Shown: piece by piece, positions 4,385-58,465 of the stretch
Position numbering within the stretch: position 1 is the stretch's first letter
Layout: each line of letters opens with the position of its first letter
IMG/VR virus record: IMGVR_UViG_3300030085_002462
DNA: 64,000 nucleotides
Direction: 5' to 3' (one strand)
From: a virus
Program-made: the position numbers and the translations under genes
The notes under the pieces: model-generated
What the model was told of the DNA's origin: nothing
The model's database searches: none
Seen by the model: the letters and a program-made list of their open reading frames with translations, nothing else

Positions 4385-4641
4385 TTGAAGACTGGCGCTA
4401 TGATGACGGTAAAATGAATGAAAGGTCACTTGCTATGAGTGCCTTCGTCCGAAAGGGTATCGATCTGAATCGTGGTGTGTATGAATTCTGTGCTGACTTC
4501 GTATCTCAAGGTGGTATGCTATCATTGTTGAAAGAGCATTGTGATGGCACAGGTGAGAGTCCCTTCACCATGGAAGTGCTAGATAGCATTGCTGATAAAG
4601 TTGTTAAGTCTTATTACGAATGGGTGGAGGAAACGTCTTGA
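4381..4641 (+). CDS. Hypothetical protein
   Basis: ORF track; ATGA overlap with the methylase stop. Confidence 0.7.
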   Translation: MIEDWRYDDGKMNERSLAMSAFVRKGIDLNRGVYEFCADFVSQGGMLSLLKEHCDGTGESPFTMEVLDSIADKVVKSYYEWVEETS

Positions 4642-37310: not shown

Positions 37311-37561
37311 ATATTATTCAATTAACCCAAGAAGAATTTGAGGAGAATGTTGACTTTGCTCTCAAACTGGTAGAGAAAGGACATACTGTAAAGATGAAGA
37401 CTAAACGTGATCGCTCTGTGATGATTGCACCTATTGCAGGATTCGTTGAGCACGATCCTCGTCTTAACATCCCCACTCCAGAAGAAGCAGAAGTAGATTC
37501 CCCAGAAGATATTGCTGCCTATGTGCAGGAATCTCTCGCTGATATGACGAGGGACTTCTAA
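37307..37561 (+). CDS. Hypothetical protein with Phd/YefM-like N-terminal pattern
   Basis: beta-alpha-alpha-beta-beta pattern IQLTQEEFEENVDFALKLVEKGHTVKM...VMIAP; fold assignment is speculative. Confidence 0.6.
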   Translation: MNIIQLTQEEFEENVDFALKLVEKGHTVKMKTKRDRSVMIAPIAGFVEHDPRLNIPTPEEAEVDSPEDIAAYVQESLADMTRDF

Positions 37562-38112
37562 TGAAACTCCCAGTATTTGAGATACCAATCTATAAGTATG
37601 AAATTGAAAACTGGGAAGAGAATAAAAAGAGTCTGATAAAAATTCTCCCAGATTTTTTACAGAAGGGAGATTTCACAGATTACTATGATAATCAAATGGC
37701 ATCATTCATGCCTCTGTATGCAAACACGGTGTTTAACCTAATACAGAAGTCAATGGAGGATTTTGCACAGTATTATCCATGTCCTGCCCAGATTGTAAAT
37801 ATGTGGTGTGAGAGATCACGAGCGGGTGACAGACACGAACCACATAATCATGGTGCTACTGGATTCTCTGCTGTATTATATGTGCAGTTTGAAGAGGGTA
37901 AACATAAACCAACTAGATTCTTCTCACCATTCGGAGATCCCGCTAATGGTGATCTCATGCAATACGAACCTGATGTGAAAGAGGGTGATCTCATCATTTT
38001 TCCATCATTCCTAATTCATGAAAGTCAAATGTGTGACACGGATTATGAAAGAATCATAATCTCATTCAATATCATGGGACAGGACCAATATAATATCCTA
38101 CATAGTGTATAA
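37561..38112 (+). CDS. 2OG-Fe(II) oxygenase-like protein (TIGR02466-like)
   Basis: NMWCE...HEPHNHG...FSAVLY...EGDLIIFPSFLIHE...RIIISFNI. Confidence 0.85.
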   Translation: MKLPVFEIPIYKYEIENWEENKKSLIKILPDFLQKGDFTDYYDNQMASFMPLYANTVFNLIQKSMEDFAQYYPCPAQIVNMWCERSRAGDRHEPHNHGATGFSAVLYVQFEEGKHKPTRFFSPFGDPANGDLMQYEPDVKEGDLIIFPSFLIHESQMCDTDYERIIISFNIMGQDQYNILHSV

Positions 38113-38126
38113 CCTGTCAGTTTCGG

Positions 38127-38411
38127 ATGAAGAAAATCAAGATTCTCTCTCATTACGCACATCTTGATGGTTTGGATGGACCAATCGGTATTGTCCAGAT
38201 TTGGACTTTTTCAGGAGTGCCTTTCACATTTGATGAATTGCCACTTCCTGTCCAACAAATGGAAGACGTAGCACTTGACGCAGATACAAGAGAACGCTAT
38301 CATATCGAAGATCTCTACCGATGGTCCGAATATCTGATTGCTGAAGAAGCACATCCACTCCTATTCGATCTGGAGTATATGATCGAGAATTTTGAAGAAT
38401 TGCCAAACTAG
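38127..38411 (+). CDS. Conserved cyanophage hypothetical protein
   Basis: ORF track; YLIAEEAHPLLF motif. Confidence 0.75.
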   Translation: MKKIKILSHYAHLDGLDGPIGIVQIWTFSGVPFTFDELPLPVQQMEDVALDADTRERYHIEDLYRWSEYLIAEEAHPLLFDLEYMIENFEELPN

Positions 38412-38475
38412 CTCAGCTGGATAGAGCAACTGTTTTGTAAACAGTAGGTCAACGGTTCAAGTCCGTTGTTTGGCT
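38402..38475 (+). tRNA. trnT: tRNA-Thr(UGU), no encoded CCA
   Basis: Acceptor stem GCCAAAC/GTTTGGC, D arm GCTC...GAGC, anticodon stem ACTGT/ACAGT with loop TTTGTAA, T loop GGTTCAAGTCC. Confidence 0.93.
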
Positions 38476-38491
38476 TCCGTGTGAAGGAAGT

Positions 38492-38977
38492 ATGATCACT
38501 GTAATCGACAACTACTTACCACCTGAAGTATATGAGCATCTATATGACCATATGGTCAATGATGATCATTTTATGTGGGTATGGTCTAATGGAGTTAATG
38601 CTTATAAAGATGGGCACAAGCAATTTGTGCACACCATTTATAATGAATACAAACCACAGTCGTGGTTTTTTGATCACTTGACTCCAATCTTTGAAAAGTT
38701 GCAAGCAACATCTATTATTAGAGTTAAACTCAATCTACAACCACAAGATGTAGAGAATACTGAGCAGGGTCTACATATTGATAATGAATCTCCTACCGCA
38801 AAAACTGCTATAATCTATTTCGGCACTAATAATGGTTACACCAAATTCGCTGATGGTCAAACTATCGAGACTGTCGCTAATCGTGCAGTTATCTTTCCTA
38901 GCAGTTATCAACATTCTGGTGCTACATGCACAGATGCGTCGGAAAGGATCGTGCTAAATATCAATTATCATGAGTGA
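38492..38977 (+). CDS. 2OG-Fe(II) oxygenase-like protein
   Basis: GLHIDN...TAIIYF..NNGYTKF...NRAVIFP....HSG...RIVLNINY. Confidence 0.8.
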   Translation: MITVIDNYLPPEVYEHLYDHMVNDDHFMWVWSNGVNAYKDGHKQFVHTIYNEYKPQSWFFDHLTPIFEKLQATSIIRVKLNLQPQDVENTEQGLHIDNESPTAKTAIIYFGTNNGYTKFADGQTIETVANRAVIFPSSYQHSGATCTDASERIVLNINYHE

Positions 38978-39566
38978 TATTATTATTGTTGATGATTTTC
39001 TTTGTCCTGCCTATCAACATCTGATCGAGAATTATTTCTTTGGTCCTGCTGTTGAGTGGACAGAGATTGATGACATTGCTATGGGTGACAGTGGTGGACT
39101 TGAGCACCTAGGTAATAAACGTAGAGGGTGGCACCACATTATGTGTGGTCCTAATAAACCATTCCCCGATGGATCCACTCCTGCATTTAACTTAATTGTG
39201 CCCATGGTGCTAGAAGCATTTGATATGTGTGGGTATAGAGTTGATGATATACATGTATCAAGAGCATTCAAAACAGATCCTCACGAGGATCGTCTTGAAT
39301 TTATTCATGTAGATTTACATTCACCACATCATGTTTGTCTATATTATCCACATGATATTGATGGGGACACTATATTTTATGAGGAGAAGTGGCCTGATGT
39401 AACTATGGAAACTCAACCAACAACAGAGTTTCATGAGTTTAGAAGGGTATCTCCAAAGAAAGGCAGAGCAGTGATCTTCGATGGCACACGATTTCACTCG
39501 GCATTTAGGTCCGCTGTCAAAGATCGCGTTGTGATAAATACCAACGCTTTTGTGTCTTATAAATAA
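38970..39566 (+). CDS. 2OG-Fe(II) oxygenase-like protein
   Basis: IHVDL...VCLYY..D.DGDT.F...KGRAVIFDG.RFHS...RVVIN. Confidence 0.8.
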   Translation: MSDIIIVDDFLCPAYQHLIENYFFGPAVEWTEIDDIAMGDSGGLEHLGNKRRGWHHIMCGPNKPFPDGSTPAFNLIVPMVLEAFDMCGYRVDDIHVSRAFKTDPHEDRLEFIHVDLHSPHHVCLYYPHDIDGDTIFYEEKWPDVTMETQPTTEFHEFRRVSPKKGRAVIFDGTRFHSAFRSAVKDRVVINTNAFVSYK

Positions 39567-43251: not shown

Positions 43252-46200
43252 ATGGCACTAACCCGTCTTAAAAATATCATCACGTCTAGGACAGGACGTA
43301 TTATCTACGTCAACCCTGACGACTTCGATGCGTCTGACGCATACGACAATAGAGGTAACTCCGCGCTGCGTCCTTTTAAGACATTGCAACGTGCATTCCT
43401 TGAGGTAGCACGTTTCTCATATAGAGTGGGTCTATCTAACGACGAATTTGACGCATTCTCAATCTATCTGTATCCATCTGAATATGTTATTGACAACCGT
43501 CCTGGTACGGCAGACTTCAATAGCATTCAACCATTCAACGAAAACACAAACTTCGATCTAACGTCACCCTCTAACGAGTTGTATAAATTCAACTCTGCTC
43601 AGGGTGGCATTGTCGTACCTAGAGGTTGTAGTGTTATTGGATCAGACCTTCGTCGTACTAAAATTGTGCCGAAGTATGTACCCTATCCTACAGTTAGTGG
43701 TGCGCTCGGTATTACAGCATCTAACGAACCACTACCAACTGCTATCTTCAAACTAACTGGTGGTTGTTATTTCTGGCAGATGTCATTCTTTGATGGTGAC
43801 ACCACTGGTGTTTACTATCGTGATGATCTTGCTACTATTGCCCCTAACTTCTCTCACCACAAACTCACTTGTTTTGAGTTTGCTAATGTAGCAGATCTGG
43901 AGCTTTACTATCAGAAGATCTCGAAAGCATACGCTACAATTCCTGATACCTCTGGTATTGTATCTCAGGACCAGATTCAGGCAAGAATCGAAGAAAACAG
44001 AATCGTTGGTCCTATTTCGGACGAATTTGCAGTATCGCAGATTATTAGAAATGGACAAACAGCAACAGCATTCACCGTGGATGAATTGGGTAACCCCAAA
44101 AACCACGGATTCTCTGTGGGTGTGGCAGTTAATATTTCTGGTGTCACTGGTCCTACTGATCAGGATGCTCTACTTTATAACGGGTCATTCCTAGTTACGT
44201 CTGCACAAGGTAACCAGTTTACCTATCAGATGTCAGCAGAGCCCACGGGTAACGCACTTGGCAGTAATGTTCTTGTTAAGGTTGAGATCGATACTGTTGA
44301 CTCTGCATCACCATATGTCTTTAACTGCTCGCTAAGATCAGTTTGGGGTATTGGTGGTATGCACGCAGATGGATCTCGTGCAACTGGTTTCAAATCAATG
44401 GTTGTTGCCCAGTTTACTGGTATTTCTCTACAGAAAGACGATCGTGCATTTGTGGTGTATAATCCAACAAACGGAGCGTATGAAGCGCAAGCGAGTGGAT
44501 CTGGTGCACACATTAATGGATTGGCAAAATACCGTAAAGGATGGCGTCACTGCCATATTAAGGCATCCAATGACGCATTCATTCAGGTTGTGTCTGTGTT
44601 CGCTGTGGGATTTGGTGATCATTTCTTCTCTGACAGTGGTGGTGACCTTTCTATTACCAACAGTAATAGTAACTTCGGAAATACGTCTCTTAGATCCAAG
44701 GGATTTAAGGCAGCAGCATTTACAAAGGATAAGGCAGGACAGATTACGCATGTAATCCCACCAAAAGCAATTACTGATATTGAAGAATTATCTGTTAACT
44801 GGGTGTCTTTCGATATTACTAAGACAAAATCGGTTGCTGACCCAACAAAACTTTACTTGTATGGATATACCACAGAGGCGGGAAGACCTCCCTCAAAAAT
44901 ACAAGGTTATACTGTTGGTGCGCGACGTGATGATGTTAACACACCTGATCGTATCTATGTACTCCTAAGAGCATCAGGATCTACAGACCCAACAACACAC
45001 TACGCTGATATCAACCCTGCTGGTAAATCTGTTACTGGCACAAGAGCAGGTGATGATGATTCTCCTATTAAATGGGATGAATCTAACTCTGGATGGTATC
45101 TGCAAGTTGATGGATCAGTTAACACCATTTACACGACACTACAGGCAAACCCACTGTATCAAAACTTAGGTTATACACCTAACTCTTTTGTTAGAAGAAT
45201 TCCTGATTCAAGAAACCTTGTCGATAGAATCTATCGTTATCGTTATGTCCTTGATAAGGATGCATTCCCTGTGCCCAGAGTGCCCATCACTGGTTTCGTG
45301 CTACAACCTAGATCCAGTGAAACTAACTCTCCTGCATATACAAAGACATATTACATCTACTCAGTAGAAACACATCAAGTATTTGAAAGAGGTGTTACGG
45401 ATGGTATTTACTATCTGACACTGTTGAATGCTTCGGTGTCACCATCTACATCTAACTTCAACGATTTCTTCTTCTCACAGCAGACAGTTGATCTGTATCC
45501 TGCATTTGACAGAGATAACCCTGTCGGTGATCCACAGGCAGCAGTATCTGTTGCAGATAATGAAACGTTGGGTCTGGTGTATACAACTGATGGTGCATCA
45601 CCTGTTGCTAACATTGATACTGAGAGATCTATCACGAAAGAAACTTCACAGTATTACTTGCTTGAATCTGAAAATAACATCGGATACAACACTACATCTA
45701 ACCTGTTGAATGGTATTAGTGTTACAGCAAGACTTGGTGATGAAGAAGAGCGTAAGATTCCATTGAAACTTAACGCTGACAATAGTGTGCAACCTATTCT
45801 CGTAGAATTGAGAAGATATTCTATTCTTAGAGCATCTGGTCACACGTTTGAGTATCTTGGATTTGGTCCAGGTAACTATTCAACTGCATTCCCATCCACA
45901 CAGGTTGAGGTGCTAACACCCGAGCAAGTTAGACTGTCACAGTCTCTCAAAGAAGCATCAGGTGTTGCATACTACTCTGGTGTTAACAGTGATGGTGAGT
46001 TGTTTGTTGGTAACCAGGTTATCAACCCAGTTACAGGTCAGATCACAAACGAAGATATTGCACAACTGAATGTGTTGGGTGAAGAAGACACAACTATCGA
46101 GACATTCTCCGAGTTGGTGTTGACTGATAAACTAACCGTTATCGGTGGTGCATCTAACCAGTTGGAATCTGTATTCTCTGGTCCTGTTACCTTCCAGAGG

Positions 46201-46824
46201 AAAGTAACATCACAGGAGAATGTGCAGTCACTGGTATTTACATTCTCCAATGATGATGGCACCACATTGAAGCAACAATTCCTCGCTGAGGAATTAGGCA
46301 CTGGTTTGCCCGATGTTGACGCTGGTGGTGCATATGCAGACGGTGATATCTGTTACAACGTGGATTGGGAACCAGGACAAGCACTTGGTTGGATCTATGA
46401 CGCTGGTGACTGGTATAAGTTTGGATTGAGTGATACTACACCAATTACATCCCAGAGATATAATGGCGTCACTCATTATGGTATCGGTGAAGCACCTGAC
46501 GCTAACAATAGATTCAGGATTACTGGTAACGTAGCAGTTACTGGTGACATTGATGTGACTGGTAAATATGGTTGTGCTGATAAGTATGCACTTGCAACTG
46601 GCATAACTAATAGTAATAATGGTGTTGTTTACAATGGAGATGCAACAACAACAAGTTTCGCTGTGTCCGCAGGACACACAGCATACTCTCTGCTGGTATT
46701 CTTGAATGGTGTTTGTCAGGTGCCTGGTGTTGACTACACCGTGACATCTAACAGTGTTGACTTTAGTATTTCTTCACCACCTGGTAATGGTGATGTGATT
46801 CAAATTCGTGAATTGGTTATCTAA
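43252..46824 (+). CDS. Tail-fibre-like virion protein, 1190 aa
   Basis: Late promoter TAAATA at 43222; MALTRL.N....TGRIIYV...RPFKTLQRA start; C-terminal VFLNGVCQ.P..DYTV domain. Confidence 0.8.
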   Translation: MALTRLKNIITSRTGRIIYVNPDDFDASDAYDNRGNSALRPFKTLQRAFLEVARFSYRVGLSNDEFDAFSIYLYPSEYVIDNRPGTADFNSIQPFNENTNFDLTSPSNELYKFNSAQGGIVVPRGCSVIGSDLRRTKIVPKYVPYPTVSGALGITASNEPLPTAIFKLTGGCYFWQMSFFDGDTTGVYYRDDLATIAPNFSHHKLTCFEFANVADLELYYQKISKAYATIPDTSGIVSQDQIQARIEENRIVGPISDEFAVSQIIRNGQTATAFTVDELGNPKNHGFSVGVAVNISGVTGPTDQDALLYNGSFLVTSAQGNQFTYQMSAEPTGNALGSNVLVKVEIDTVDSASPYVFNCSLRSVWGIGGMHADGSRATGFKSMVVAQFTGISLQKDDRAFVVYNPTNGAYEAQASGSGAHINGLAKYRKGWRHCHIKASNDAFIQVVSVFAVGFGDHFFSDSGGDLSITNSNSNFGNTSLRSKGFKAAAFTKDKAGQITHVIPPKAITDIEELSVNWVSFDITKTKSVADPTKLYLYGYTTEAGRPPSKIQGYTVGARRDDVNTPDRIYVLLRASGSTDPTTHYADINPAGKSVTGTRAGDDDSPIKWDESNSGWYLQVDGSVNTIYTTLQANPLYQNLGYTPNSFVRRIPDSRNLVDRIYRYRYVLDKDAFPVPRVPITGFVLQPRSSETNSPAYTKTYYIYSVETHQVFERGVTDGIYYLTLLNASVSPSTSNFNDFFFSQQTVDLYPAFDRDNPVGDPQAAVSVADNETLGLVYTTDGASPVANIDTERSITKETSQYYLLESENNIGYNTTSNLLNGISVTARLGDEEERKIPLKLNADNSVQPILVELRRYSILRASGHTFEYLGFGPGNYSTAFPSTQVEVLTPEQVRLSQSLKEASGVAYYSGVNSDGELFVGNQVINPVTGQITNEDIAQLNVLGEEDTTIETFSELVLTDKLTVIGGASNQLESVFSGPVTFQRKVTSQENVQSLVFTFSNDDGTTLKQQFLAEELGTGLPDVDAGGAYADGDICYNVDWEPGQALGWIYDAGDWYKFGLSDTTPITSQRYNGVTHYGIGEAPDANNRFRITGNVAVTGDIDVTGKYGCADKYALATGITNSNNGVVYNGDATTTSFAVSAGHTAYSLLVFLNGVCQVPGVDYTVTSNSVDFSISSPPGNGDVIQIRELVI

Positions 46825-46853
46825 AAAATAAATAACAGTAAACGAGGGTTCAC

Positions 46854-47777
46854 ATGGCAACTCAGATTATTGGCAATCAGATTAATCAGGTTACTCGTGC
46901 CATCATGGAGGCACTTCAGGTAACTGAGCAGATCAACCTGCCTAATCTTAACCAAACACAGATCAATGCCCTAGGCACACCTGCATACGGCACACTGGTG
47001 TATAACAGCACCGAAGATATGGCACAGATATATCTTCAGGATGCTGCACAAGGTGTACCTGGTTGGGATGATGTTGGTGGCGGTGGTCCCTCTGTTGGTG
47101 AAGAGTCAATCATTAGGACTAATGGTCCTAGAATTCAACAAAACATTACTGTTGGTCCTGTTGCTAACGGTGGTGACGAATTTACTAACGGATTCTCTGC
47201 AGGTCCGATTCAGATTGATAACGGATATACTGTAACAGTTGAAAATGGAGCACGATGGACTATCATCGGTGGTGAGGAAAACGACCTCTCTGAAGGTACT
47301 CCAGTCCAAGTGAAGTATGCTCAGACAGAACCACTGAGATATACTATTAGATCCCAAAATGTTAGTGATGGCGCAATTCCTGGTTTAGAAATTAATATCC
47401 AACCTACACACACTGACTCTAAGATTTTGTTGATTGCTAATATTATGTCAACTGGTCAACACGTCTCCAGTTTTGGATTCATGAGACAAATTGCTGGTGG
47501 TGGTCAAACAACTCTCGAACCATCGGGACATCCTGGTAACAACAGTAATACTGGCAATGGTCGTATTGCTACTTGGTATCGTGGTGATGACACGCCAGGT
47601 CACATCTATGCACATACTGTGATGTTTATGGATATGCCATCAACTCAAAATATGTGCACATATGTTGTGGGTGGCACAGCATCTTGGGGTGGAAGTATCA
47701 GAGATCTCTATATTAATGATAGAGATAGTAATGATATGAGAGGTATTTCTTCGTTTATGGCAATGGAGGTAAGATGA
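46854..47777 (+). CDS. Short fibre or virion structural protein
   Basis: Late promoter TAAATA at 46829; IRTN...I..N.T...NG.SAGPI.I..G.TVTV..GA.W motif followed by a tip domain. Confidence 0.75.
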   Translation: MATQIIGNQINQVTRAIMEALQVTEQINLPNLNQTQINALGTPAYGTLVYNSTEDMAQIYLQDAAQGVPGWDDVGGGGPSVGEESIIRTNGPRIQQNITVGPVANGGDEFTNGFSAGPIQIDNGYTVTVENGARWTIIGGEENDLSEGTPVQVKYAQTEPLRYTIRSQNVSDGAIPGLEINIQPTHTDSKILLIANIMSTGQHVSSFGFMRQIAGGGQTTLEPSGHPGNNSNTGNGRIATWYRGDDTPGHIYAHTVMFMDMPSTQNMCTYVVGGTASWGGSIRDLYINDRDSNDMRGISSFMAMEVR

Positions 47778-48085
47778 GATTGGATTTTAGTGATGAGATT
47801 AAAACACAGGCGATTGTACGTGTGTGTGGAGATCACTCTTTTACAATGACAGAAGGTGATTTGACTACGATTAAATTCGCAGATCCACATATCCGCGTCC
47901 CATCTGCATCACGTCTTGAAGCAATGTGTGAGGTCATTGCTAATGAAAAACGACTTGAGAAAAAACTACCACCTCCTCCTGTAACAATGGATCTCCTAGA
48001 AATGATCTGGGAAGATATTCATGCAGGGAAACTAAATAAGGAAGGTAGTTTTTACAATGTCCTTAAACCTTACATTGATAAATAA
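47774..48085 (+). CDS. Putative fibre assembly chaperone
   Basis: LLEMIWEDIHAGKL...GSFY motif; directly follows a fibre gene. Confidence 0.5.
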   Translation: MRLDFSDEIKTQAIVRVCGDHSFTMTEGDLTTIKFADPHIRVPSASRLEAMCEVIANEKRLEKKLPPPPVTMDLLEMIWEDIHAGKLNKEGSFYNVLKPYIDK

Positions 48086-48105: not shown

Positions 48106-48921
48106 ATGGCACAACTAAAACTTGGAGCGATTAAAGATCTAAGCGGCGTGAGTGGTTTTACATTCACTGCTGGAGGTGTGTCTGCTAACGGTGCTTTGGT
48201 CGTAACAGACCTTGTTATTGATGGAAGTGTTTCTGGTTCTGCCGTGGGCACATATGTGGTGCCAAGTGTAAGCGGACAGGCAAATAGATTTCTGACTAAC
48301 GACGGCAGTAGCATGAGTTGGGCAGAAGTTGCAACCTCTGCTGGTGTTAGATCCATGTCGGTCTATACTGGCAACAATACATGGAACAAACCTTCAGGTA
48401 CTAGATCTATTCTAGTAACTGTAACTGGTGCTGGAGGTGGTGGATCAGGATTCCATGAAGGTGGTGGTGCTGGTGGCACATCACAAAGACATATTGATGT
48501 GACTAACATTAACTCAGTTAGTGTTACAGTCGGATCACCTGGTGGCGGTGCTTACTACAACGGATGTGGTGGTAATGGTAACGCTTCTTCTTTTGGTAGT
48601 TACTTGTCTGCTAACGGTGGTGTTGGTGGTAACTGCTCACAGCAACACGCTGGAGGATTGGGTGGTCATGGATCAGGTGGCACACTAAATATCCATGGTG
48701 GTGGTAACGGAGGTCACGGATCTCACCACTCTTATGGTTGTGGTGTTTCTGCATCTAGTTACTGGGGTGGTGGACAACCTTCCTGTCATCATAGAAATCA
48801 TCACTACGCTCATTCCCATGAATCATATGCTGCATGGGGTGCAGGTGGTGGCGGCGCTGAATTCGGTTATCGTGGAGCACGCGGTAGAGAAGGAGTCGTT
48901 GTTGTCCTTGAGTATTATTGA
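48106..48921 (+). CDS. Glycine-rich, His-rich fibre or adhesin paralog 1
   Basis: Late promoter TAAATA at 48079; NRFLTNDGSSMSW shaft motif; VTVTGAGGGG...GREGVVVV..Y glycine-rich domain. Confidence 0.8.
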   Translation: MAQLKLGAIKDLSGVSGFTFTAGGVSANGALVVTDLVIDGSVSGSAVGTYVVPSVSGQANRFLTNDGSSMSWAEVATSAGVRSMSVYTGNNTWNKPSGTRSILVTVTGAGGGGSGFHEGGGAGGTSQRHIDVTNINSVSVTVGSPGGGAYYNGCGGNGNASSFGSYLSANGGVGGNCSQQHAGGLGGHGSGGTLNIHGGGNGGHGSHHSYGCGVSASSYWGGGQPSCHHRNHHYAHSHESYAAWGAGGGGAEFGYRGARGREGVVVVLEYY

Positions 48922-48944
48922 TAAATAACTAAAAAGTAAGTCTC

Positions 48945-49760
48945 ATGAGTATTCTTAAAACCAGTAATATCTATGATCTTACGGGCGTCTCGGGTTTCTC
49001 CTTCTCTGGAGGCGGCGTCACGGTGGAGGGTACTCTTACGGTCTCTACTTTGACGGTTAATGGTGCTATTGTTGGACAATCTTCTTACGTTTTGCCCTCA
49101 CAGTCAGGTAGCAGCGGTAAGTTTCTATCCAATGATGGTACTAAGTTACAATGGAAGGACTTAAGTGTTGAGTCTGGCATTAGATCAATGTCAGTCTATA
49201 CTGGTGGTAACACATGGAATAAACCCAACGGTGTTGGCACTATTCACGTTTTGGTTACTGGTGCTGGCGGCGGTGGATCTGGATTCGGTGAATCTGGTGG
49301 TGCTGGTGGTCACTCAGAGAAAGTAATTAACGTAGCAAATATTAACTCTGTAGGTATTACAGTTGGATCACCTGGCGGTGGTGCATACTATAATGGTTGC
49401 GGTGGTAATGGTAACGCATCAAGTTTTGGATCGTATCTATCAGCAAACGGCGGTGTTGGTGGCAACTGCTCACAACAGCACGCTGGTGGACTCGGTGGAC
49501 ATGGATCTGGCGGTGAATTAAACATCCACGGTGGTGGAGGATCTGGACACGGATCTTATCACTCCTATGGTCGTCACTATCCTGGTCCCTCATTCTGGGG
49601 TGGCGGACAACCTGGTTGTCATCACAGAAATCATCACTATGCACACTCTCATGAATCATATGCTGCATGGGGCGCTGGCGGTGGTGGTGCTGAGTTTGGT
49701 TATAGAGGTGCCCGAGGTCGTGAGGGTATTGTTGTTGTATACGAGTATTACGGCGATTAA
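48945..49760 (+). CDS. Glycine-rich, His-rich fibre or adhesin paralog 2
   Basis: Late promoter TAAATA at 48922; same architecture as paralog 1. Confidence 0.8.
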   Translation: MSILKTSNIYDLTGVSGFSFSGGGVTVEGTLTVSTLTVNGAIVGQSSYVLPSQSGSSGKFLSNDGTKLQWKDLSVESGIRSMSVYTGGNTWNKPNGVGTIHVLVTGAGGGGSGFGESGGAGGHSEKVINVANINSVGITVGSPGGGAYYNGCGGNGNASSFGSYLSANGGVGGNCSQQHAGGLGGHGSGGELNIHGGGGSGHGSYHSYGRHYPGPSFWGGGQPGCHHRNHHYAHSHESYAAWGAGGGGAEFGYRGARGREGIVVVYEYYGD

Positions 49761-49763
49761 TCA

Positions 49764-50570
49764 ATGAGTATCCTTAAAATTAACCACGTTAAAGACCTTA
49801 GCGGTATTGGTGGTTTCCAACTAGAAGCGGCAAACATTACCACAAATGGTACACTGAGAGTTACTGATCTCGCTATCAACGGTCAGGTCAATGGCACGGC
49901 GTCTAGTATTATTCCAGCGCTGCCTGGTAGTAATTACTATCTAACTACAAATGGTAGTAGTTTGAGTTGGCAGGAAGTTTCTTCATCTGGTGGATTCAAA
50001 TCCATGCAGGTATGGACAGGTAATGGCACATGGAGCAAACCTCAAGGAATTAGATCTATCCTTGTTAAAGTTGTTGGTGCTGGTGGCGGGGGATCAGGAT
50101 ATACTGAAGCAGGTGGTGCTGGTGGACATGGTGAAGTTATCGTTGATGTTAATAATGTAAATAGTGTTGGCGTTACTGTTGGATCACCAGGTGGTGGCGC
50201 ATATTATAATGGTTGTGGTGGTAATGGTAATGCATCATCATTTGGTGGATATGTATCTGCTAATGGTGGTACAGGTGCTAATTGTCATAACCAATACGCT
50301 GGTGGATTTGGTGGGCATGGATCTGGTGGTAACCTCAACTCACATGGTGGAGGTGGCACAGGTCACGGATCTCACTATTCTTATGGTAATATGATGGGCG
50401 GTGCATCCTATATGGGTGGATCTCAACCTGGTTGTCATCATAGAAATCATCATTATGCACACTCTCACGAGAGTTATGCTGCATGGGGTGCTGGTGGTAA
50501 CGGAGCAGAGTTCGGTTATCGCGGTGCACGCGGTAGAGAGGGTGTGGTAGTTGTCTATGAATATGCTTGA
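49764..50570 (+). CDS. Glycine-rich, His-rich fibre or adhesin paralog 3
   Basis: Same architecture; shares the identical CHHRNHHYAHSHESYAAWGA block. Confidence 0.8.
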   Translation: MSILKINHVKDLSGIGGFQLEAANITTNGTLRVTDLAINGQVNGTASSIIPALPGSNYYLTTNGSSLSWQEVSSSGGFKSMQVWTGNGTWSKPQGIRSILVKVVGAGGGGSGYTEAGGAGGHGEVIVDVNNVNSVGVTVGSPGGGAYYNGCGGNGNASSFGGYVSANGGTGANCHNQYAGGFGGHGSGGNLNSHGGGGTGHGSHYSYGNMMGGASYMGGSQPGCHHRNHHYAHSHESYAAWGAGGNGAEFGYRGARGREGVVVVYEYA

Positions 50571-50598
50571 TAAATAACTAAAGGAAACTTTTACGACA

Positions 50599-51096
50599 AT
50601 GACTAAAAGAGCAATCGTTAACGGCGAAACTGGGGCACTGAGTGATATCTGTGATCCTGGGGACGAGTTTGAGATCTATTCAGGACCTGATGCCACTCAG
50701 AAGTGGTGTGATGTGCCTGATGATACCACTTATGAGCACACCATGATCAATGGTAAGATCTGGCATCGTAGAGATCTAGAGGATAAGCAATTCACTGCTA
50801 CAACTGAGCGTGTACTTGCCTATGGTCCTATGGGTGAGCAGATGGACATGATGTATAAAGATCAAGTAGACGGTGGTACCCGTTGGAAAGATCATATTGC
50901 TAAGGTTAAAGCAAACCTTGCTGCACCATCATCCCTTGATGCATATGATAATGACCCCAAAAAGGTCCAACAGTATGGTAGGATGGCATGGGAAGCATAC
51001 GATGAGGCATATGAAATGCCTGGTGATCGTATGAGAGAAGCACAGGTAAGAATGATCCGTAACTTCGCAGCACAACCAGAAGCAAACAAAGAGTAA
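50599..51096 (+). CDS. Putative tail-fibre assembly chaperone
   Basis: Late promoter TAAATA at 50571; R..AY..MGEQMDMMYKD...G..RWKDHI.KVK motif common after fibre genes. Confidence 0.6.
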   Translation: MTKRAIVNGETGALSDICDPGDEFEIYSGPDATQKWCDVPDDTTYEHTMINGKIWHRRDLEDKQFTATTERVLAYGPMGEQMDMMYKDQVDGGTRWKDHIAKVKANLAAPSSLDAYDNDPKKVQQYGRMAWEAYDEAYEMPGDRMREAQVRMIRNFAAQPEANKE

Positions 51097-51112
51097 TTAG
51101 TATTATTTCGTT

Positions 51113-52714
51113 ATGAAGGTAGAGTCAATTTGTATCGTTGGCGGTGGATCTGCTGGTTGGATGTCAGCAGCACTACTCGCAAAGCAGTTTCCTGATATTG
51201 AAATTGCTCTAGTTGAATCTGATAAAAAACCCACTATTGGTGTGGGTGAAAGTACGTTGGGGCACTTCAATCGTTACCTCCTCCACATGGAGTTGGAGGA
51301 TGAAGATTGGATGCCCCATTGTAATGCAACGTACAAAACATCCATTGCATTTAGAAACTTTAAGCACGGTAAGGGTGAGAGATTCCAGTATCCATTTGGT
51401 GGACTAGCATATCAAGAACCATATAGGACTGACATTCAGAGATTCTATGAGTTGCAGATCCTGCATCCCGAGTTATATCCTGATGATGAGTTTGCTCGCT
51501 TTTGGAATCCATCAACATTGCTGACTGAGCAACAGAAGATTGCTAGTACAGGCATCGATGGTATGATGTGGGACCATAATAACGACAGCGCATATCATTT
51601 TGATGCTGAGTTGTTTGGTATCTATTTGAAAGAGCATCATTGTCAACGTGTCCAGCATGTGGTTGGTCATGTGGATCATGTTGTTAAGACTGAAGATGGA
51701 TATATTAAAGCGATTGTAACTGCTGAGGGTAGTTACATTGAAGCGGACATGTATATTGACTGCACAGGATTTAAGTCACTACTCCTTGAAGGATTCATGG
51801 GTAGTGAGTGGGAATCATTCAAAGATGTGCTATTCAATGATAGAGCAGTAGCAACACAGATTCCATACAAGAATCGTGAAACTGAAATGGATACCTATAC
51901 TGATTGTGATGCACAGTCAGCAGGGTGGGTATGGAATATCCCGTTGTGGAATCGTGTTGGCACGGGATATGTTTACTCATCTGATTACATCAATGAGTGT
52001 GAAGCAGAGCAAGAATTTAGAGAGTATTTGAGTGAGCGATATTCGCCCGAGATTGCCCAAAATGCTGAAATGCGTCACATTAAGATCAAGCATGGTAAGC
52101 ATAAAGAGGCATGGGTTAAGAATGTTGTGGGTATTGGATTGTCCTATGGTTTCCTAGAACCATTGGAATCTACTGGTCTCATGACTACACATGAGAATAT
52201 TCTATTCTTTGCTAATGCACTGGCACGCCGTAATGGTCTACTGACTGATGTTGATCGTAAGTCTTTCAACTTCACAGTGGATAAGGTGCTGGAGAATATG
52301 AAACTATTCGTTGCTCAGCATTATTATCTGACACAACGTCAAGATAATAAGTATTGGCGTGATGTTACCAACATTGAGTTGGGACATGGTGAGTGGAGAT
52401 TGGGGACAGAATATTCTACGCTTCAGTCTAAGCAGGAATACTATAACCTACTTGACAGAGCAACAAATAAATTCTATGATGGTGACACCTTTGGTGGTTT
52501 GCTGTATATCTCAGCAGGTCAAGGTTACCGACCTATATCTTCGTGGGACTTCAAAGTAAGATGTAAGAATGTCCCAATGCATTATGGTCAAGTAACTAGC
52601 ACTCATGAGTGGTATCAGAAGGAAAAGCAAAGACTGTTGGATATCATTGATGATATGCCTACACATTATGAATATCTAAGGGATCGTATTTATGGCAAAG
52701 AAACCGTGGATTAG
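51113..52714 (+). CDS. Flavin-dependent (tryptophan-halogenase/PrnA-like) halogenase 2
   Basis: GGGSAG, IGVGEST, CNATYK, YHFDA, YIDCTGF, GWVWNIP, FLEPLESTG. Confidence 0.92.
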   Translation: MKVESICIVGGGSAGWMSAALLAKQFPDIEIALVESDKKPTIGVGESTLGHFNRYLLHMELEDEDWMPHCNATYKTSIAFRNFKHGKGERFQYPFGGLAYQEPYRTDIQRFYELQILHPELYPDDEFARFWNPSTLLTEQQKIASTGIDGMMWDHNNDSAYHFDAELFGIYLKEHHCQRVQHVVGHVDHVVKTEDGYIKAIVTAEGSYIEADMYIDCTGFKSLLLEGFMGSEWESFKDVLFNDRAVATQIPYKNRETEMDTYTDCDAQSAGWVWNIPLWNRVGTGYVYSSDYINECEAEQEFREYLSERYSPEIAQNAEMRHIKIKHGKHKEAWVKNVVGIGLSYGFLEPLESTGLMTTHENILFFANALARRNGLLTDVDRKSFNFTVDKVLENMKLFVAQHYYLTQRQDNKYWRDVTNIELGHGEWRLGTEYSTLQSKQEYYNLLDRATNKFYDGDTFGGLLYISAGQGYRPISSWDFKVRCKNVPMHYGQVTSTHEWYQKEKQRLLDIIDDMPTHYEYLRDRIYGKETVD

Positions 52715-53513
52715 ATTCTACTCAATCGAGAAGGGTTTATCACAAAGATTCCCGTGGATGCCATCGCGTAAGTTGTCGCGACCATGGAGAGTTAAAGCAC
52801 AGAAAGAGTTATCTAAGGATCCAGTTACCCGTTGTCCAGCATTAAAACTGCAACGCATGGTGCAGATGTCTAAGGTAACTAATCAACCCACTATCTTTCC
52901 AATGCACGCGGCAACTTGCCCAGCATTGACAGGTGTAATGGATAGTGGTTTTATAATGACTGCTGCATATGATTTCGTTATCTCCATGGAAAATGGAGAA
53001 ATGTTTTTCATGTCTAAAGGTGAAAGAATTCATTTACATTCACCTGAGCAGACTGATGGTATGCGTGAGTATATTAGTGACAAACCTATTCACCCTGTTG
53101 TAATTAAGTTACAACAACCATGGAGAGTCCATGCACATAAAGATGTATGCTTCTTGCAGTTGCCAGTAACATATCATAAAGAGGAGCGATTCTCTGTTGC
53201 TACTGGTATTGCAGATCCTACATATTCATATGAGATCAATTTACAACTCTTTTGGCATATGCTAGAGGATGGACAATATCTCATTGAAGCGGGCACACCA
53301 CTCGCACAGTGGATACCTATCCACAGAGATTATCTCAATCCGAGTAACTTCAACGTTGAGATAGAAGATGCAAATGATGACGATTATGTTGCTGAGGATT
53401 ATTGGCAATATCATATGAGAAACACGTTTGCAGAATTACAACCACTACAAGTGAGAAAGAAAATACACCAATTCATTGTCTCACTAAATAAAAACAGCAA
53501 GAGGTTTGAGTAA
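52692..53513 (+). CDS. Conserved cyanophage hypothetical protein (beta-rich)
   Basis: TCPA...MDSGFI..AAYDF, IKL..PW, GTPLAQWIPI. Confidence 0.75.
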   Translation: MAKKPWIRFYSIEKGLSQRFPWMPSRKLSRPWRVKAQKELSKDPVTRCPALKLQRMVQMSKVTNQPTIFPMHAATCPALTGVMDSGFIMTAAYDFVISMENGEMFFMSKGERIHLHSPEQTDGMREYISDKPIHPVVIKLQQPWRVHAHKDVCFLQLPVTYHKEERFSVATGIADPTYSYEINLQLFWHMLEDGQYLIEAGTPLAQWIPIHRDYLNPSNFNVEIEDANDDDYVAEDYWQYHMRNTFAELQPLQVRKKIHQFIVSLNKNSKRFE

Positions 53514-53515
53514 TC

Positions 53516-53965
53516 ATGTCTGACAACACTTTGGGTAACCTTGAATCGACATCGCGTAATGTCAAGGAAATCACAGAATATGACATCGACAAGGTGGCAG
53601 GAGTTGAGACCACCGAAGAAGTCAGGGAAAAACTTGAAGCAACTAAAATTGAAGCAGGAGTGCTAATCTCCTATGATCAACTGGTTGTTAATTTCCTACA
53701 ACAATATGAAGATGCTAAAGAGGATCTTCTCAAGATGCAAACTGCACTTGATAACCTGCACTACACATCTACAGTGACTAAGATTTCACTGAAAGAGATG
53801 CAGGATAAGAAAGATTTTATGCATCAACTCCACGGTGCTATTGAAGCGCTGTATCTTTATCAGAAGCATGTTGATCCCAACGTGACTGATAAACCATGGA
53901 CATTTGAAGACCCTGAATATGATGAAACCACAATCACTGCCGACCCCACCACACAGGAAGGTTGA
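53516..53965 (+). CDS. Acidic coiled-coil hypothetical protein
   Basis: Late promoter TAAATA at 53485; heptad-like helices. Confidence 0.7.
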   Translation: MSDNTLGNLESTSRNVKEITEYDIDKVAGVETTEEVREKLEATKIEAGVLISYDQLVVNFLQQYEDAKEDLLKMQTALDNLHYTSTVTKISLKEMQDKKDFMHQLHGAIEALYLYQKHVDPNVTDKPWTFEDPEYDETTITADPTTQEG

Positions 53966-54575
53966 TCTACTATTTCCCACACCATTATGGACATTTGATG
54001 GGTGTGGGTTAGATACAAAAGAAATTACAGATTTCTGTTATGTAATTAAGGACGAAGGTCCTGGTAGAAAGGTAAGTAATATCGGTGACAATGCATATCA
54101 GTCACTAGATTTTATGCCCTCCATCCTACCCCGTACGCCCCTGTATGCCCTCTATAATAAGATTATGGAGTGTGCATACTCTGCTGCCGATGAATGGGGT
54201 TTCCAAGGGTATAAACTAGACATGGGTAATCTCTGGATTAATATCAATGGGAGAGCAGCATCTAACATGGTGCACACTCATCCTGGTTGTATATTGTCTG
54301 GAGTTTATTATGCTAAACTACCATCATGTTGTGAGGGTAGTCTTGTGTTGTGTGATACCTATGAGAGACAACATATGAAACAGTATTGGGCGGATCAAGG
54401 TAATATCAATAAGTATGATGATCTGAATAAGGATGAGCACACTGTTTATCCTAAGGAAGATAGTATGCATATATTTCCTGCATGGGTGCCACATTATGTG
54501 GATCCAAATATGAATCCTGATGGTGATGATCGTATTAGTATCAGTTTTAACCTCAGAGTGAGACAGTTTCGATGA
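53919..54575 (+). CDS. 2OG-Fe(II) oxygenase-like protein (TIGR02466-like)
   Basis: LFPTP, LWININ...NMVHTHPGCILSGVYY, IFPAWVPHYV, RISISFNL. Confidence 0.88.
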   Translation: MMKPQSLPTPPHRKVDLLFPTPLWTFDGCGLDTKEITDFCYVIKDEGPGRKVSNIGDNAYQSLDFMPSILPRTPLYALYNKIMECAYSAADEWGFQGYKLDMGNLWININGRAASNMVHTHPGCILSGVYYAKLPSCCEGSLVLCDTYERQHMKQYWADQGNINKYDDLNKDEHTVYPKEDSMHIFPAWVPHYVDPNMNPDGDDRISISFNLRVRQFR

Positions 54576-55243
54576 ATTATATCCAGTTAGATGATGTTGT
54601 AGCACCGACATCTTACTCACGACTCCATGCACTTGTTACAGGTGTAGAATTTCCATGGTTTTTTCATGCTAAGGATGTAACTTATCAAACTAATGGTGAA
54701 TTTACATTTGGTGGACAAGATCTATTCGAACCTCCCAAAGAGTATAGATTGCCTGGTTTTTTTCATGCTGTTATTAAGACTGATCAAGGTCCAGTTTCGC
54801 CCTACTTTGCCCTAATTGAAACAGCAGTGCTCAATTCTATTCAAGATAGATTGGGTGTTGAATGTCAATTCTTCCGTGCAATTTGGAGATTGACATTAAA
54901 TGCTGGTGACAGAGATGGACACACCACAGCACATGTTGATCATGATGATGATCACTACACTGCAATATATTATTTGAATGATTGCTCAGGTGATACTGTA
55001 TTGTTTGATCAATACGATGATCCTAAAGACTTCGATGGTAATGTAAGTGAGCGATGGTTAAAAGGTAGGAAACAACCTTATACTATTAACAGGAGACAGA
55101 CACCTAAAGCAAATAGTGCTATTATATTTGATGGTCATCAATATCATGCTGGCACACCTCCACAGGGTGACGATGCATGGAGAATAGTGTTAAACATAAA
55201 CTTTAAGACACATGAGCATATCTTTCCTGCCACATCAACTTAG
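54572..55243 (+). CDS. 2OG-Fe(II) oxygenase-like protein
   Basis: AHVDHD...TAIYYLND.SGDTVLF...IIFDG.QYHAG...RIVLNIN. Confidence 0.82.
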   Translation: MNYIQLDDVVAPTSYSRLHALVTGVEFPWFFHAKDVTYQTNGEFTFGGQDLFEPPKEYRLPGFFHAVIKTDQGPVSPYFALIETAVLNSIQDRLGVECQFFRAIWRLTLNAGDRDGHTTAHVDHDDDHYTAIYYLNDCSGDTVLFDQYDDPKDFDGNVSERWLKGRKQPYTINRRQTPKANSAIIFDGHQYHAGTPPQGDDAWRIVLNINFKTHEHIFPATST

Positions 55244-55910
55244 AGACACTAAAGAGTGGGATGTCGATGACAAACCACACATGTGGGAGGGCATCGCTAA
55301 AGATATTAGCGATGTTTTATCATGGGATAAAGTAGAGTATTGTCTCAACAATCCTCAATTCTTCCGTGTCAATCTACCTCATAATAATATCCCTCATTAT
55401 TATAGAAACTGGGGAGACAAAGAAGTACCTGATCCCAAAGATATATTTGAAGCAGTTAACAATGGTAGGACATTTATCATTGAAAACTATTCATGGTGTG
55501 ATGAGACTAGCAGACAATTAATGGATGCATTTGAAGCAGTGTTTCCATCATGTCAGGGTGAAATGCATGTGTATGGTGGCACATCAACTCATCAAAGTTT
55601 CCCTATTCATCAAGACTTAGCGAATAACTTTATTATTCAGTGTGAAGGTGAAACTCACTGGACTGTATATAATGATAGGGCAAGCAATCTACTCTCACAT
55701 CGTGAGACTATGGATGCAAAACTCAGTGAAAACTTGCTCACAGTTGCCATCGATTGCACTCTTAAAAAAGGTGATGTGCTCTACATCCCTGCTAGATGTT
55801 ATCATCGAGCACAACCAGACTCGCGTCGTCTCTCACTCAGTGTCCCGATGATGCACTTATGTCAATCAAAACCATACGATAGAAAGTATTATGAATTACG
55901 AAAGACTTAA
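55212..55910 (+). CDS. JmjC / cupin-4 (ROXA/YcfD-like) oxygenase
   Basis: SFPIHQD..NNFIIQCEGETHWTVY...LKKGDVLYIPARCYHRA...RLSLS. Confidence 0.82.
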   Translation: MSISFLPHQLRDTKEWDVDDKPHMWEGIAKDISDVLSWDKVEYCLNNPQFFRVNLPHNNIPHYYRNWGDKEVPDPKDIFEAVNNGRTFIIENYSWCDETSRQLMDAFEAVFPSCQGEMHVYGGTSTHQSFPIHQDLANNFIIQCEGETHWTVYNDRASNLLSHRETMDAKLSENLLTVAIDCTLKKGDVLYIPARCYHRAQPDSRRLSLSVPMMHLCQSKPYDRKYYELRKT

Positions 55911-56535
55911 TCCCTATGCATATGTGTTTAAGTCTAAAAGTATGATCGACTTTGAGACTGTTAAACCTAGAGTATTAGCATACCTAGATTATGCAAACAC
56001 ACAGCATCAAACATCACTAGAGAAAGATGGCGGTCGATCTTCAGTGCACTTGAGTGTGACTGACCCTCCACATGCTTGGGATGAATTCACACCTTTTAGA
56101 GAAAAGATGTTTGAAGTATGTGATGAAGTATGGAAGGAATGGAAGTTACAACCGTGTATCAAACAAGTAAAGGGATCATGGATTAATGAGCATCCACAGG
56201 GTGCATGGACTGATTCACATCATCACCACGGATGTCATTTAGTGGTGTCATGGTATATGAAACAACCTAAAAATAGTGGTCGGTTAATGATACAAAACCC
56301 ACTCACACCATACAAGATGAGCGAACCTACTGATGTTTTGTATGATGCTATGGGTATGGATTGGATCCCCATTGATACTGAAGAAGGTGACTTCTTAGTA
56401 TTTCCAGGTTGGTTAAAGCATAAAACAGAAACCAACAATTCCTCAGAAATGCGTTATATTATGAGTGTCAACATAAGTGCATATCGCTTTTATGGTGAAA
56501 ATGAAATGCCATTTCAACACAATAGAGTGACATAA
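55891..56535 (+). CDS. 2OG-Fe(II) oxygenase-like protein (TIGR02466-like)
   Basis: SWINEH...TDSHHH...WYM, EGDFLVFPGWLKH, RYIMSVNI. Confidence 0.85.
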   Translation: MNYERLNPYAYVFKSKSMIDFETVKPRVLAYLDYANTQHQTSLEKDGGRSSVHLSVTDPPHAWDEFTPFREKMFEVCDEVWKEWKLQPCIKQVKGSWINEHPQGAWTDSHHHHGCHLVVSWYMKQPKNSGRLMIQNPLTPYKMSEPTDVLYDAMGMDWIPIDTEEGDFLVFPGWLKHKTETNNSSEMRYIMSVNISAYRFYGENEMPFQHNRVT

Positions 56536-56594
56536 CGTTGACGATACCACCAAAACCCGCTTAAATAGTAATGCCACGTTGCAAAGAGGGAGGC

Positions 56595-56759
56595 ATGTCC
56601 ATTTGGAAAACTCAGATCCTCGCTAATAGCGAGAAATCTCTCGTTAAACATGCATTGTTTTTATATCAAAAGCAAATGTATGACAAAATCGGAGAGTTAT
56701 CACCTGCTCAGAGGGTAACACTCCAATCTATCGTCGAAAAGTTATCCTTAACCACATGA
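56595..56759 (+). CDS. Hypothetical protein
   Basis: GGAGG RBS before the ATG at 56595. Confidence 0.65.
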   Translation: MSIWKTQILANSEKSLVKHALFLYQKQMYDKIGELSPAQRVTLQSIVEKLSLTT

Positions 56760-57085
56760 CCACACCATTACTGATAGGGGAATCAGTCCCCAAAGAAGTA
56801 AAAAACATCCTCAAATCTCTTGAGGTAGGACAAAGAGCACGGATTGGATCTGTTGAAGGTTTTATTGAATTTGTCAGTGATGAATACATCACTGTTTGTG
56901 TTTCAACTAAACCCAATCCCGAAGGATCTAGACAACCAATGAATAAATGTTGTGTTTGTGTTTATCCATATCAATGGGACGATCTAGAGATAGAAGACGA
57001 GCACTTCTATGACCACAAAGCATTCAGGGGCAAAACTAATGACCATCCTGGAAATGAAATGCTACCTGATATAGACGATAGGTAA
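56756..57085 (+). CDS. Hypothetical protein
   Basis: ORF track; ATGA overlap. Confidence 0.7.
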   Translation: MTTPLLIGESVPKEVKNILKSLEVGQRARIGSVEGFIEFVSDEYITVCVSTKPNPEGSRQPMNKCCVCVYPYQWDDLEIEDEHFYDHKAFRGKTNDHPGNEMLPDIDDR

Positions 57086-57093
57086 ACTGTCAC

Positions 57094-57128
57094 AGGGGGT
57101 TGAGACACCCCCTTTTTTTGTGTATAAT
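57094..57128 (+). promoter_or_regulatory. Terminator hairpin fused with a sigma70 promoter for the helicase
   Basis: AGGGGG-TTGAGAC-ACCCCCT plus T run; TTGAGA(57100-05)-17 nt-TATAAT(57123-28). Confidence 0.7.
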
Positions 57129-58389: not shown

Positions 58390-58465
58390 CAATCTACAAG
58401 GTGCACACTAATTGTTGTGCACCTATTTTTCTTGGGTTATATTATATACATAACACACAAGGCAC

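Follow-up and report, generated by a model that had tools for sequence, protein, structure and literature searches.

The 64,000-nucleotide window analysed here, taken from IMG/VR virus record IMGVR_UViG_3300030085_002462, contains at 48106-56535 a cassette in which three glycine-rich fibre-tip paralogs and a small protein, C165, are followed by a flavin-dependent halogenase and by four oxygenases of the 2-oxoglutarate (2OG) and JmjC types. What the parts of this cassette are, and that they are linked, can be stated with high confidence; judged from gene order, tips, C165 and halogenase have been passed down as a group in all relatives sampled. I propose, as a possible though rather doubtful reading of that linkage, that the virus halogenates and hydroxylates its own fibre-assembly proteins, either at a tryptophan in the tail of C165 or within the Gly/His-rich tips, by means of enzymes made late from the fibre transcripts. 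The genes concerned are these:

48106-48921, + strand: Gly-rich fibre-tip paralog 1, 271 amino acids (Gly_rich_2, E 3e-10; phrog_863, E 7e-58; box ATAAATAA at 48078)
48945-49760, + strand: Gly-rich fibre-tip paralog 2, 271 amino acids (Gly_rich_2, phrog_863; late-type box at 48921)
49764-50570, + strand: Gly-rich fibre-tip paralog 3, 268 amino acids (Gly_rich_2, phrog_863; no box of its own; starts 3 nucleotides past paralog 2)
50599-51096, + strand: C165, small protein of 165 amino acids, conserved in its core and variable in its tail, which bears a Trp (phrog_1787; late-type box at 50570)
51113-52714, + strand: flavin-dependent halogenase, ortholog of VirX1 (PF04820, E 1.4e-103; PDB 6QGM)
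52692-53513, + strand: X273, dUTPase-fold protein of 273 amino acids (by fold match; gene overlaps that of the halogenase by 23 nucleotides)
53516-53965, + strand: K149, small acidic protein of 149 amino acids (open reading frame; CTAAATA at 53485, 31 nucleotides upstream)
53904-54575, + strand: O1, TIGR02466 / 2OG-FeII_Oxy_5 oxygenase (TIGR02466, 82 bits against a cut-off of 62.5; PF13759, E 1e-16)
54572-55243, + strand: O2, divergent 2OG oxygenase-like protein (phrog_274; weakly phrog_61 and phrog_81)
55212-55910, + strand: JmjC-core oxygenase of the MINA53/NO66 clade, 232 amino acids (JmjC_2, E 7e-19, 68 bits against a cut-off of 22)
55891-56535, + strand: O3, second 2OG-FeII_Oxy_5 oxygenase (PF13759, E 1.3e-14, 54.9 bits against a cut-off of 27)

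The virus itself, a marine phage, is placed by its protein matches as a T4-like cyanomyovirus (Kyanoviridae). The source record is a complete genome of 186 kb, of which the window covers positions 64029-128028, and the region is the distal end of its late tail-fibre gene block. The closest isolate is P-TIM40, whose cassette proteins show 36-84% identity; a megablast search with the DNA gave a sole match, 81 nucleotides to P-TIM40, and relatives were reached through their proteins. An initial annotation of this DNA, made from the sequence alone, had listed the open reading frames of the region, and all of them are present where it put them and on the + strand. It also described those from 50599 to 56535 as abutting or overlapping, which agrees with the measured spacing (from gene to gene 16, -23, 2, -62, -4, -32 and -20 nucleotides). 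Its order of the enzymes, with the two TIGR02466-like oxygenases standing side by side and the JmjC enzyme last, was wrong: the third oxygenase and the JmjC enzyme lie, in this sequence, between the two TIGR02466-like ones.

The linkage between tips and halogenase across cyanophages, which the initial annotation had put forward as a check, is strongly positive. All 14 deposited phage records with tip paralogs also carry a halogenase within about 5 kb. The order tips, C165, halogenase or halogenases, X273, oxygenases recurs in P-TIM40, Syn9, P-RSM6, S-WAM1, S-RIM44 and S-SZBM1 (X273 being absent in the S-WAM1/P-RSM6 cassette type), that is, in phages of five named genera plus the unclassified P-RSM6. 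Among uncultured viruses of IMG/VR, where tip-anchored loci were counted if they had at least 3 kb of sequence downstream, C165 and a halogenase lie downstream of the tips in 67 of 67, and in all 67 the C165 gene comes directly after the tip genes.

The gene block begins upstream of the region first annotated, with a 1190-amino-acid fibre protein and proteins of 307 and 103 amino acids ahead of the paralogs, and two small genes close the unit:

43252-46824, + strand: FIB, large tail-fibre protein, 1190 amino acids (phrog_529, tail fibre, E 0; ATAAATAA at 43221)
46854-47777, + strand: A307, conserved fibre-associated protein, 307 amino acids (phrog_7459; weak tail-fibre matches; ATAAATAA at 46828)
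47774-48085, + strand: B103, small protein, 103 amino acids (open reading frame conserved solely in the P-TIM40-like group; family searches gave no match)
56571-57085, + strand: two small conserved open reading frames, 62 and 109 amino acids, closing the unit (phrog_712, phrog_8681; syntenic in relatives)

The orthologs of FIB and A307 in S-SZBM1 (S-SZBM1_52, 1192 amino acids, and S-SZBM1_51, 287 amino acids) are present in purified virions, and A307 keeps its place in most relatives. In more than 20 loci FIB and A307 are missing upstream, the upstream fibre having been replaced, yet the link between tips and enzymes is kept. On the other side stands a helicase gene in the source virus, whereas S-RIM44 and Sf-CH11 have the neck gene gp13 there. 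In one contig (L102) tips and C165 are inverted, so that they face the halogenases.

Six uncultured large phage contigs (L016, L091, L093, L099, L068 and L069) at first looked like exceptions to the tip linkage. Each has three tandem C1q/TNF-like tip paralogs beside its enzyme clusters, and contigs of this type hold up to four halogenases, three copies of X273 and many oxygenases. These paralogs are about 320 or 200 amino acids long, with mutual identities of 38-46% (43% in L016, 15745-18647, - strand). The pelagiphage HTVC008M has a Gly_rich_2 protein behind a baseplate wedge gene and beside four oxygenases, in its structural region, and a halogenase and an oxygenase between the genes for the small and the large terminase subunits (L026/L028; 54918-59681 and 63198-65157 of the record). 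Oxygenases and halogenase therefore lie within late structural modules outside cyanophages too.

All three tip paralogs pass the cut-off of PF21722 (Gly_rich_2), 24.3 bits, with 40.9, 34.1 and 27.0 bits, and they are 68-72% identical to one another. An AlphaFold model of paralog 1 (pLDDT 81) matches the fibre of cyanophage Pam3 (7YPX_A; Foldseek E 1.3e-7, TM 0.49/0.53, 24% identity), as well as the tail tip of mycobacteriophage Bxb1 (9D93, E 1e-6) and the glycine-rich domain of ALK/LTK; the Pam3 and Bxb1 fibres enter the present comparison as fold matches only. The paralogs thus have the fold known from the tail fibre of Pam3, TNF-like plus polyglycine. The label fibre-tip paralogs is well founded because of the Gly_rich_2 match, the fold match to Pam3 and Bxb1, and the standing of Pam3 gp24 as a proven fibre; presence of the three proteins in the virion is putative.

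The tip paralogs (48106-50570) are also evolutionary mosaics. Over residues 1-100 each copy is closest to the paralog in the same position in other phages (55-62% identity, against 40-51% within a genome), while over residues 140-271 copies that share a genome agree at 81-89% of positions and copies from different genomes at 65-73%. Four-fold sites agree at a fraction of only 0.46-0.58, where codon bias predicts 0.39. The pattern points to old gene conversion, or to selection for tips that match one another against a shared partner.

C165 had been called chaperone-like. The position of its gene directly behind the fibre genes agrees with that, and so do atlas leads to tail-assembly chaperones, which are weak (0.86-0.88). 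A recognisable chaperone family has to be rejected, Pfam and PDB searches with C165 and its relatives having returned no match. An alignment of 11 sequences has a conserved core up to about residue 105, then a tail that varies in length and sequence, in which a single Trp, W131, is invariant, mostly within a P-A-W motif. The fetched loci gave 97 distinct C165 homologs, of which 96 have a tail Trp; their tails range from 23 to 118 residues, and Trp makes up 3.7% of the tail residues. Wherever such a homolog was found and the flank reaches far enough, a halogenase stands at the same locus. Two homologs consist of the core only, 92 and 102 amino acids, both stopping where the tail would begin. 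They come from podoviruses that lack the halogenase, where they lie behind fibre genes, the copy in MEP301 following a tail-fibre gene. A wider protein search gave 1970 matches, with long forms only among the matches listed.

The halogenase had been described as intact and flavin-dependent, and the description holds: the protein matches VirX1 (6QGM) over its full length (residues 1-529, E 3.2e-138), has every catalytic motif, and is about 44% identical by tblastn to the gene in Syn10. The flavin-binding GxGxxG is present as IVGGGSAGW at residues 8-16, where G10, G11, G12 and G15 are invariant in 10 relatives. K75 (in NATYK), W272, W274 and P277 (in WVWNIP) and E349 and E352 (in EPLES) are likewise invariant among relatives and align with VirX1. 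By its sequence, then, the cassette halogenase is an intact flavin halogenase of the VirX1 type, sharing with VirX1 the flavin-binding, Lys, WxWxIP and Glu motifs. For VirX1, the iodinating halogenase of cyanophage Syn10, a characterisation of 2019 described a trimer whose active site is large and open; the enzyme prefers iodide to bromide and bromide to chloride, and in vitro it halogenates many small aromatic compounds.

Promoter motifs suggest that these enzymes are expressed late. The initial annotation placed late promoters at 48079, 48922, 50571 and 53485, and TAAATA is present at all four, as ATAAATAA at three of them and as CTAAATA at 53485. The window holds 3 copies of the exact late box of T4, TATAAATA, where 2.55 are expected, and this motif, showing no enrichment, was dropped; what the window supports is the shorter ATAAATA(A), biased to one strand and fixed in its spacing. 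The + strand has 12 instances of ATAAATA and the - strand 2, and the six nearest the cassette lie 18-26 nucleotides upstream of long open reading frames, one instance at 39559 and the others before FIB, A307, tip 1, tip 2 and C165. Nine related loci, with proteins as little as about 30% identical, were compared, and in them TAAATA is again found 25-32 nucleotides before tip genes. It stands ahead of C165 in six of the nine and ahead of K149 in three of the four that have K149 (28-29 nucleotides upstream in P-TIM40, L007 and L009). No late-type box precedes any halogenase or oxygenase gene at these nine loci.

The transcript has one evident place to end:

57094-57120, + strand: intrinsic terminator, a 7-bp stem with 5 G-C pairs (hairpin at 57094-57113), then T7

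Apart from this terminator, directly behind the last small open reading frame, the only strong one on the + strand is at 58399. The absence of terminators between the cassette genes, claimed in the initial annotation, is confirmed to the extent that no strong one precedes 57094. I infer that the cassette enzymes would be read from late fibre transcripts, because of the positions of the boxes, their conservation, and the lack of a conserved internal promoter or a strong internal terminator. A sigma70-like match, TTGACA-17-TATGAT, does lie inside the halogenase gene (52452-52480, + strand, 11 of 12 positions). It was rejected as a conserved internal promoter, because P-TIM40, L007 and L009 have no such match at the corresponding place; the matches within the halogenase gene in the S-WAM1 group have another codon position and resemble echoes of coding sequence. 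A near-consensus promoter, TTGAGA-17-TATAAT, lies at 57100-57128 (+ strand) before an SF2 helicase gene, its -35 element overlapping the terminator hairpin. This overlap of terminator and promoter, at 57094-57128, draws a sharp line where late genes end and early ones begin.

The metal ligands of all four oxygenases are conserved. At least 90% of 102 homologs share H124, H126, H197 and R210 with O1, whose closest solved structure is 3BVC, an uncharacterised protein. O3 scores 60.2 on TIGR02466, just below the cut-off of 62.5, with H110, H112, H177 and R188 conserved. O2 has weak matches to 2OG families, and its H121, D123, H192 and R204 recur in at least 90% of 125 homologs; relatives of O2 carry the mistaken annotation DNA endonuclease V. 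The JmjC protein, an ortholog of Syn9 gp49 (41% identical), has an iron site of H133, D135 and H198, conserved in at least 90% of 90 homologs. It matches MINA53 and NO66, in chains of 442-489 amino acids, with E values of 1e-6 to 1e-4, over residues 102-204 only. Like the ribosomal oxygenases MINA53, NO66 and YcfD (JmjC_2) it has the JmjC core with an H-x-D...H iron site, but those proteins are 370-470 amino acids long, and the cassette protein, with 232 residues and alignments confined to the core, lacks their dimerisation and winged-helix parts. JmjC enzymes of the MINA/NO66 clade hydroxylate His in proteins, going by the names of the solved molecules. Three more oxygenase-like genes (phrog_81, phrog_274) lie at 37561-39566 (+ strand), between a gene for a baseplate hub/lysozyme (34406-37084) and genes for virion structural proteins; the fibre block is therefore flanked by oxygenases on both sides.

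X273, which the initial annotation could describe only as beta-rich, can now be described as having a dUTPase-like fold. Its model (pLDDT 90) is a dUTPase-like barrel with helical additions, matched to dUTPases by Foldseek (E 2.5e-4) and by VIA (Z 10.1-8.0, the top 11 chains all being dUTPases). The sequence is less clear: Pfam matches to X273 all fall below cut-off, the Pfam dUTPase model matches just 2 of 51 relatives (best 3e-4), and the atlas lead is to DUF6065. A G-x-x-D-x-x-Y stretch at residues 172-178, conserved among close relatives, resembles motif 3 of dUTPases. A role for X273 as flavin reductase partner of the halogenase is unsupported, the fold being dUTPase-like. K149 belongs to no family found by Pfam and phrog searches.

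The same families, in the same order, are known from the neighbourhood of Syn9 and Syn10 (Syn9 gp38-gp54). Syn9 has the Gly-rich gp38 and gp39, then gp40 (C165), the halogenases gp41 and gp42, gp43 (X273) and a row of 2OG oxygenases with the JmjC protein gp49. The cassette differs in having one halogenase where Syn9 has two, three tip paralogs, and four oxygenases where Syn9 has about ten. Iyer, Abhiman, de Souza and Aravind (2010, PMC2938197), who assigned gp49 to the MINA/NO66 clade, described the Syn9 array as some ten dioxygenases with tryptophan halogenases and proposed that it makes halogenated secondary metabolites. Their passages on Syn9 do not connect the enzymes with fibre genes or late promoters, and their proposal of collagen-like or tail-collar substrates is made there for some bacterial operons, not for the phage clusters. 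Among the papers searched, none was found that links the halogenase to fibre genes. As a sequence feature, the cassette is another case of a gene neighbourhood already described; the link to fibres and the idea of a protein substrate are a new reading of it.

Pam3 offers a second point of comparison. Its gp24 is a proven fibre with a TNF-like and a glycine-rich domain, and the gene of a chaperone, gp25, follows (PMC9608196). The cassette has the same tip fold (7YPX) and the same small gene directly behind the fibre gene. Unlike Pam3, it has three short paralogs behind a separate fibre of 1190 amino acids, and searches with the C165 sequence detect no solved chain, not even gp25. The abstract and outline of the Pam3 paper make no mention of a halogenase or oxygenase.

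Flavin halogenases that act on peptides occur in pathways for ribosomally synthesised and post-translationally modified peptides (RiPPs), for example MibH and SrpI. The likeness lies in a Trp halogenase gene standing beside that of C165, whose conserved Trp is in a variable C-terminal stretch. The gene of the candidate substrate is, as in RiPP systems, always adjacent to the enzymes, in 67 of 67 loci and again with C1q-like tips and in inverted orientation. Two things differ: the cassette has no other maturation genes, protease or exporter, and the candidate substrate is a folded protein of 135-220 amino acids belonging to a virion assembly module.

How might such a system work? The enzymes would be made late, alongside the parts of the virion, and would act on a gene-encoded protein from the same transcripts; a protein substrate is suggested because the cassette has no enzyme to build a scaffold. 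The likeliest target would be either C165, at the Trp in its variable tail, or the Gly-rich tips, at aromatic and His residues. Flavin reduced by the host would serve the halogenase, with bromide or iodide from seawater as its halide, the oxygenases would add hydroxyl groups, and the outcome may be an altered fibre assembly or receptor binding. That the enzymes act on some protein encoded in the cassette, whichever it is, I put a little short of even. Of the initial annotation's idea of fibre tailoring, the signals for late co-expression and the constancy of the linkage stand; for its halogenation and hydroxylation of fibre loops there is no direct evidence.

Several observations weigh against the proposal. 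A modified residue has been observed nowhere. The virion proteome of S-SZBM1, 30 proteins, includes neither the tip orthologs S-SZBM1_48 and _49 nor the halogenase and oxygenases, and the same proteome does list fibre proteins _51 to _54, neighbours of the tips. Halogenases of the family also occur at a distance from fibre genes: S-B64 has one beside gp46, S-MbCM6 has one beside psbA, and in P-SSM2 the neighbours are unrelated genes; conversely, S-B64 and P-SSM2 have Gly_rich_2 fibres with no halogenase nearby. About eight halogenase loci in IMG/VR are without tip genes within 10 kb. The source genome itself has a second halogenase (4620-6116, + strand, 498 amino acids, phrog_2928, E 8e-138), directly upstream of psbA (6474-7556). 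In a FastTree tree, to be taken with caution, it groups with the first of the two cassette halogenases in phages of the P-TIM40 type (support 99), so that one halogenase of the cassette type seems to have relocated to the photosynthesis gene region of this phage. Thirteen matches to the PF13759 oxygenase family are scattered over the source genome. The linkage counts are not independent events, many of the loci sampled being closely related, and gene order is generally conserved in T4-like phages. Finally, the contrast between C165 proteins with and without a Trp tail uses only two tail-less homologs.

One could instead follow Iyer and colleagues and have the halogenase and oxygenases tailor a small molecule or short peptide, a secondary or host metabolite, the adjacency to fibres doing no more than provide late expression. 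VirX1 halogenates many small aromatics in vitro, X273 has a fold of nucleotide-binding type, related halogenases stand among metabolic genes such as psbA, and IMG/VR contains enzyme-only clusters without detectable tips. The same dioxygenase families also accompany tryptophan halogenases in bacterial neighbourhoods that have no phage fibres and hold TonB-type receptors, SapC, nonribosomal peptide synthetases and sulfotransferases, as set out in the bacterial comparisons of PMC2938197. What makes me regard a small molecule as rather unlikely is that profile searches of the cassette found no scaffold-forming enzyme, precursor-peptide signature or exporter, that expression from late boxes leaves a metabolite little time to help the infection, and that nothing in the idea explains the linkage in 67 of 67 loci, the second tip family or the inverted orientation. 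An action on macromolecules other than the fibres late in infection I take to be unlikely; it would leave the halogenase and the constant linkage to tips unexplained. The macromolecules might be host ribosomal or envelope proteins or phage DNA, or the effect might lie in the consumption of 2-oxoglutarate, steering nitrogen signalling. Here the closest solved relatives of the JmjC protein, which are ribosomal histidyl hydroxylases, are suggestive, and so are the oxygenases of the same Pfam family dispersed through the genome beside unrelated genes and the 2OG oxygenase found in a virion preparation of S-SCSM2R, where it was judged non-structural. DNA repair (Weigele 2007) and modulation of host nitrogen signalling through 2OG (Sullivan 2010) have been proposed in print, and antibiotic protection is another published reading of such cyanophage enzymes. 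However, the JmjC protein is a core of 232 amino acids without the extra domains of the ribosomal oxygenases, none of the four oxygenases matches AlkB-type families, and late timing is poorly suited to steering host metabolism.

It may also be that there is no functional link at all, accessory genes having piled up in a hyperplastic spot at the boundary between late fibre genes and early genes, with synteny reflecting shared descent. The end of the cassette does coincide with the terminator and early promoter; lineages do vary in the number and order of their enzymes, some having one halogenase and others two, some lacking X273 or K149, with anywhere from 3 to more than 8 oxygenases; one type of halogenase has moved to the psbA region in the source genome; and many of the loci sampled are close relatives. 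But neither a change of both outer neighbours nor an inversion breaks the linkage with tips and C165, which also returns with another family of tips and is kept at protein identities of 30-40%. Mere accumulation would leave the conserved Trp in the tail of C165 unexplained as well, and I consider it distinctly improbable.

Tryptophan halogenase and multi-copy 2OG oxygenase genes of cyanophages have been catalogued for some 20 years as auxiliary metabolic genes with no substrate assigned, and VirX1 serves as a biocatalyst whose natural substrate is not known. With tips and enzymes constantly linked under late expression, and with a tail Trp in C165 that hardly ever varies, the question narrows to a short list of protein substrates that can be tested, and the phages P-TIM40, Syn9 and S-WAM1 exist in culture. 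If the proposal that the enzymes modify fibre-assembly proteins is refuted, the cluster becomes an ordinary member of a described gene neighbourhood. If it is true, a viral structural or assembly protein would for the first time be seen to undergo enzymatic halogenation, enzymes of the VirX1 type would have their natural role, and post-translational halogenation and hydroxylation would join the means by which abundant ocean viruses tune the recognition of their hosts.

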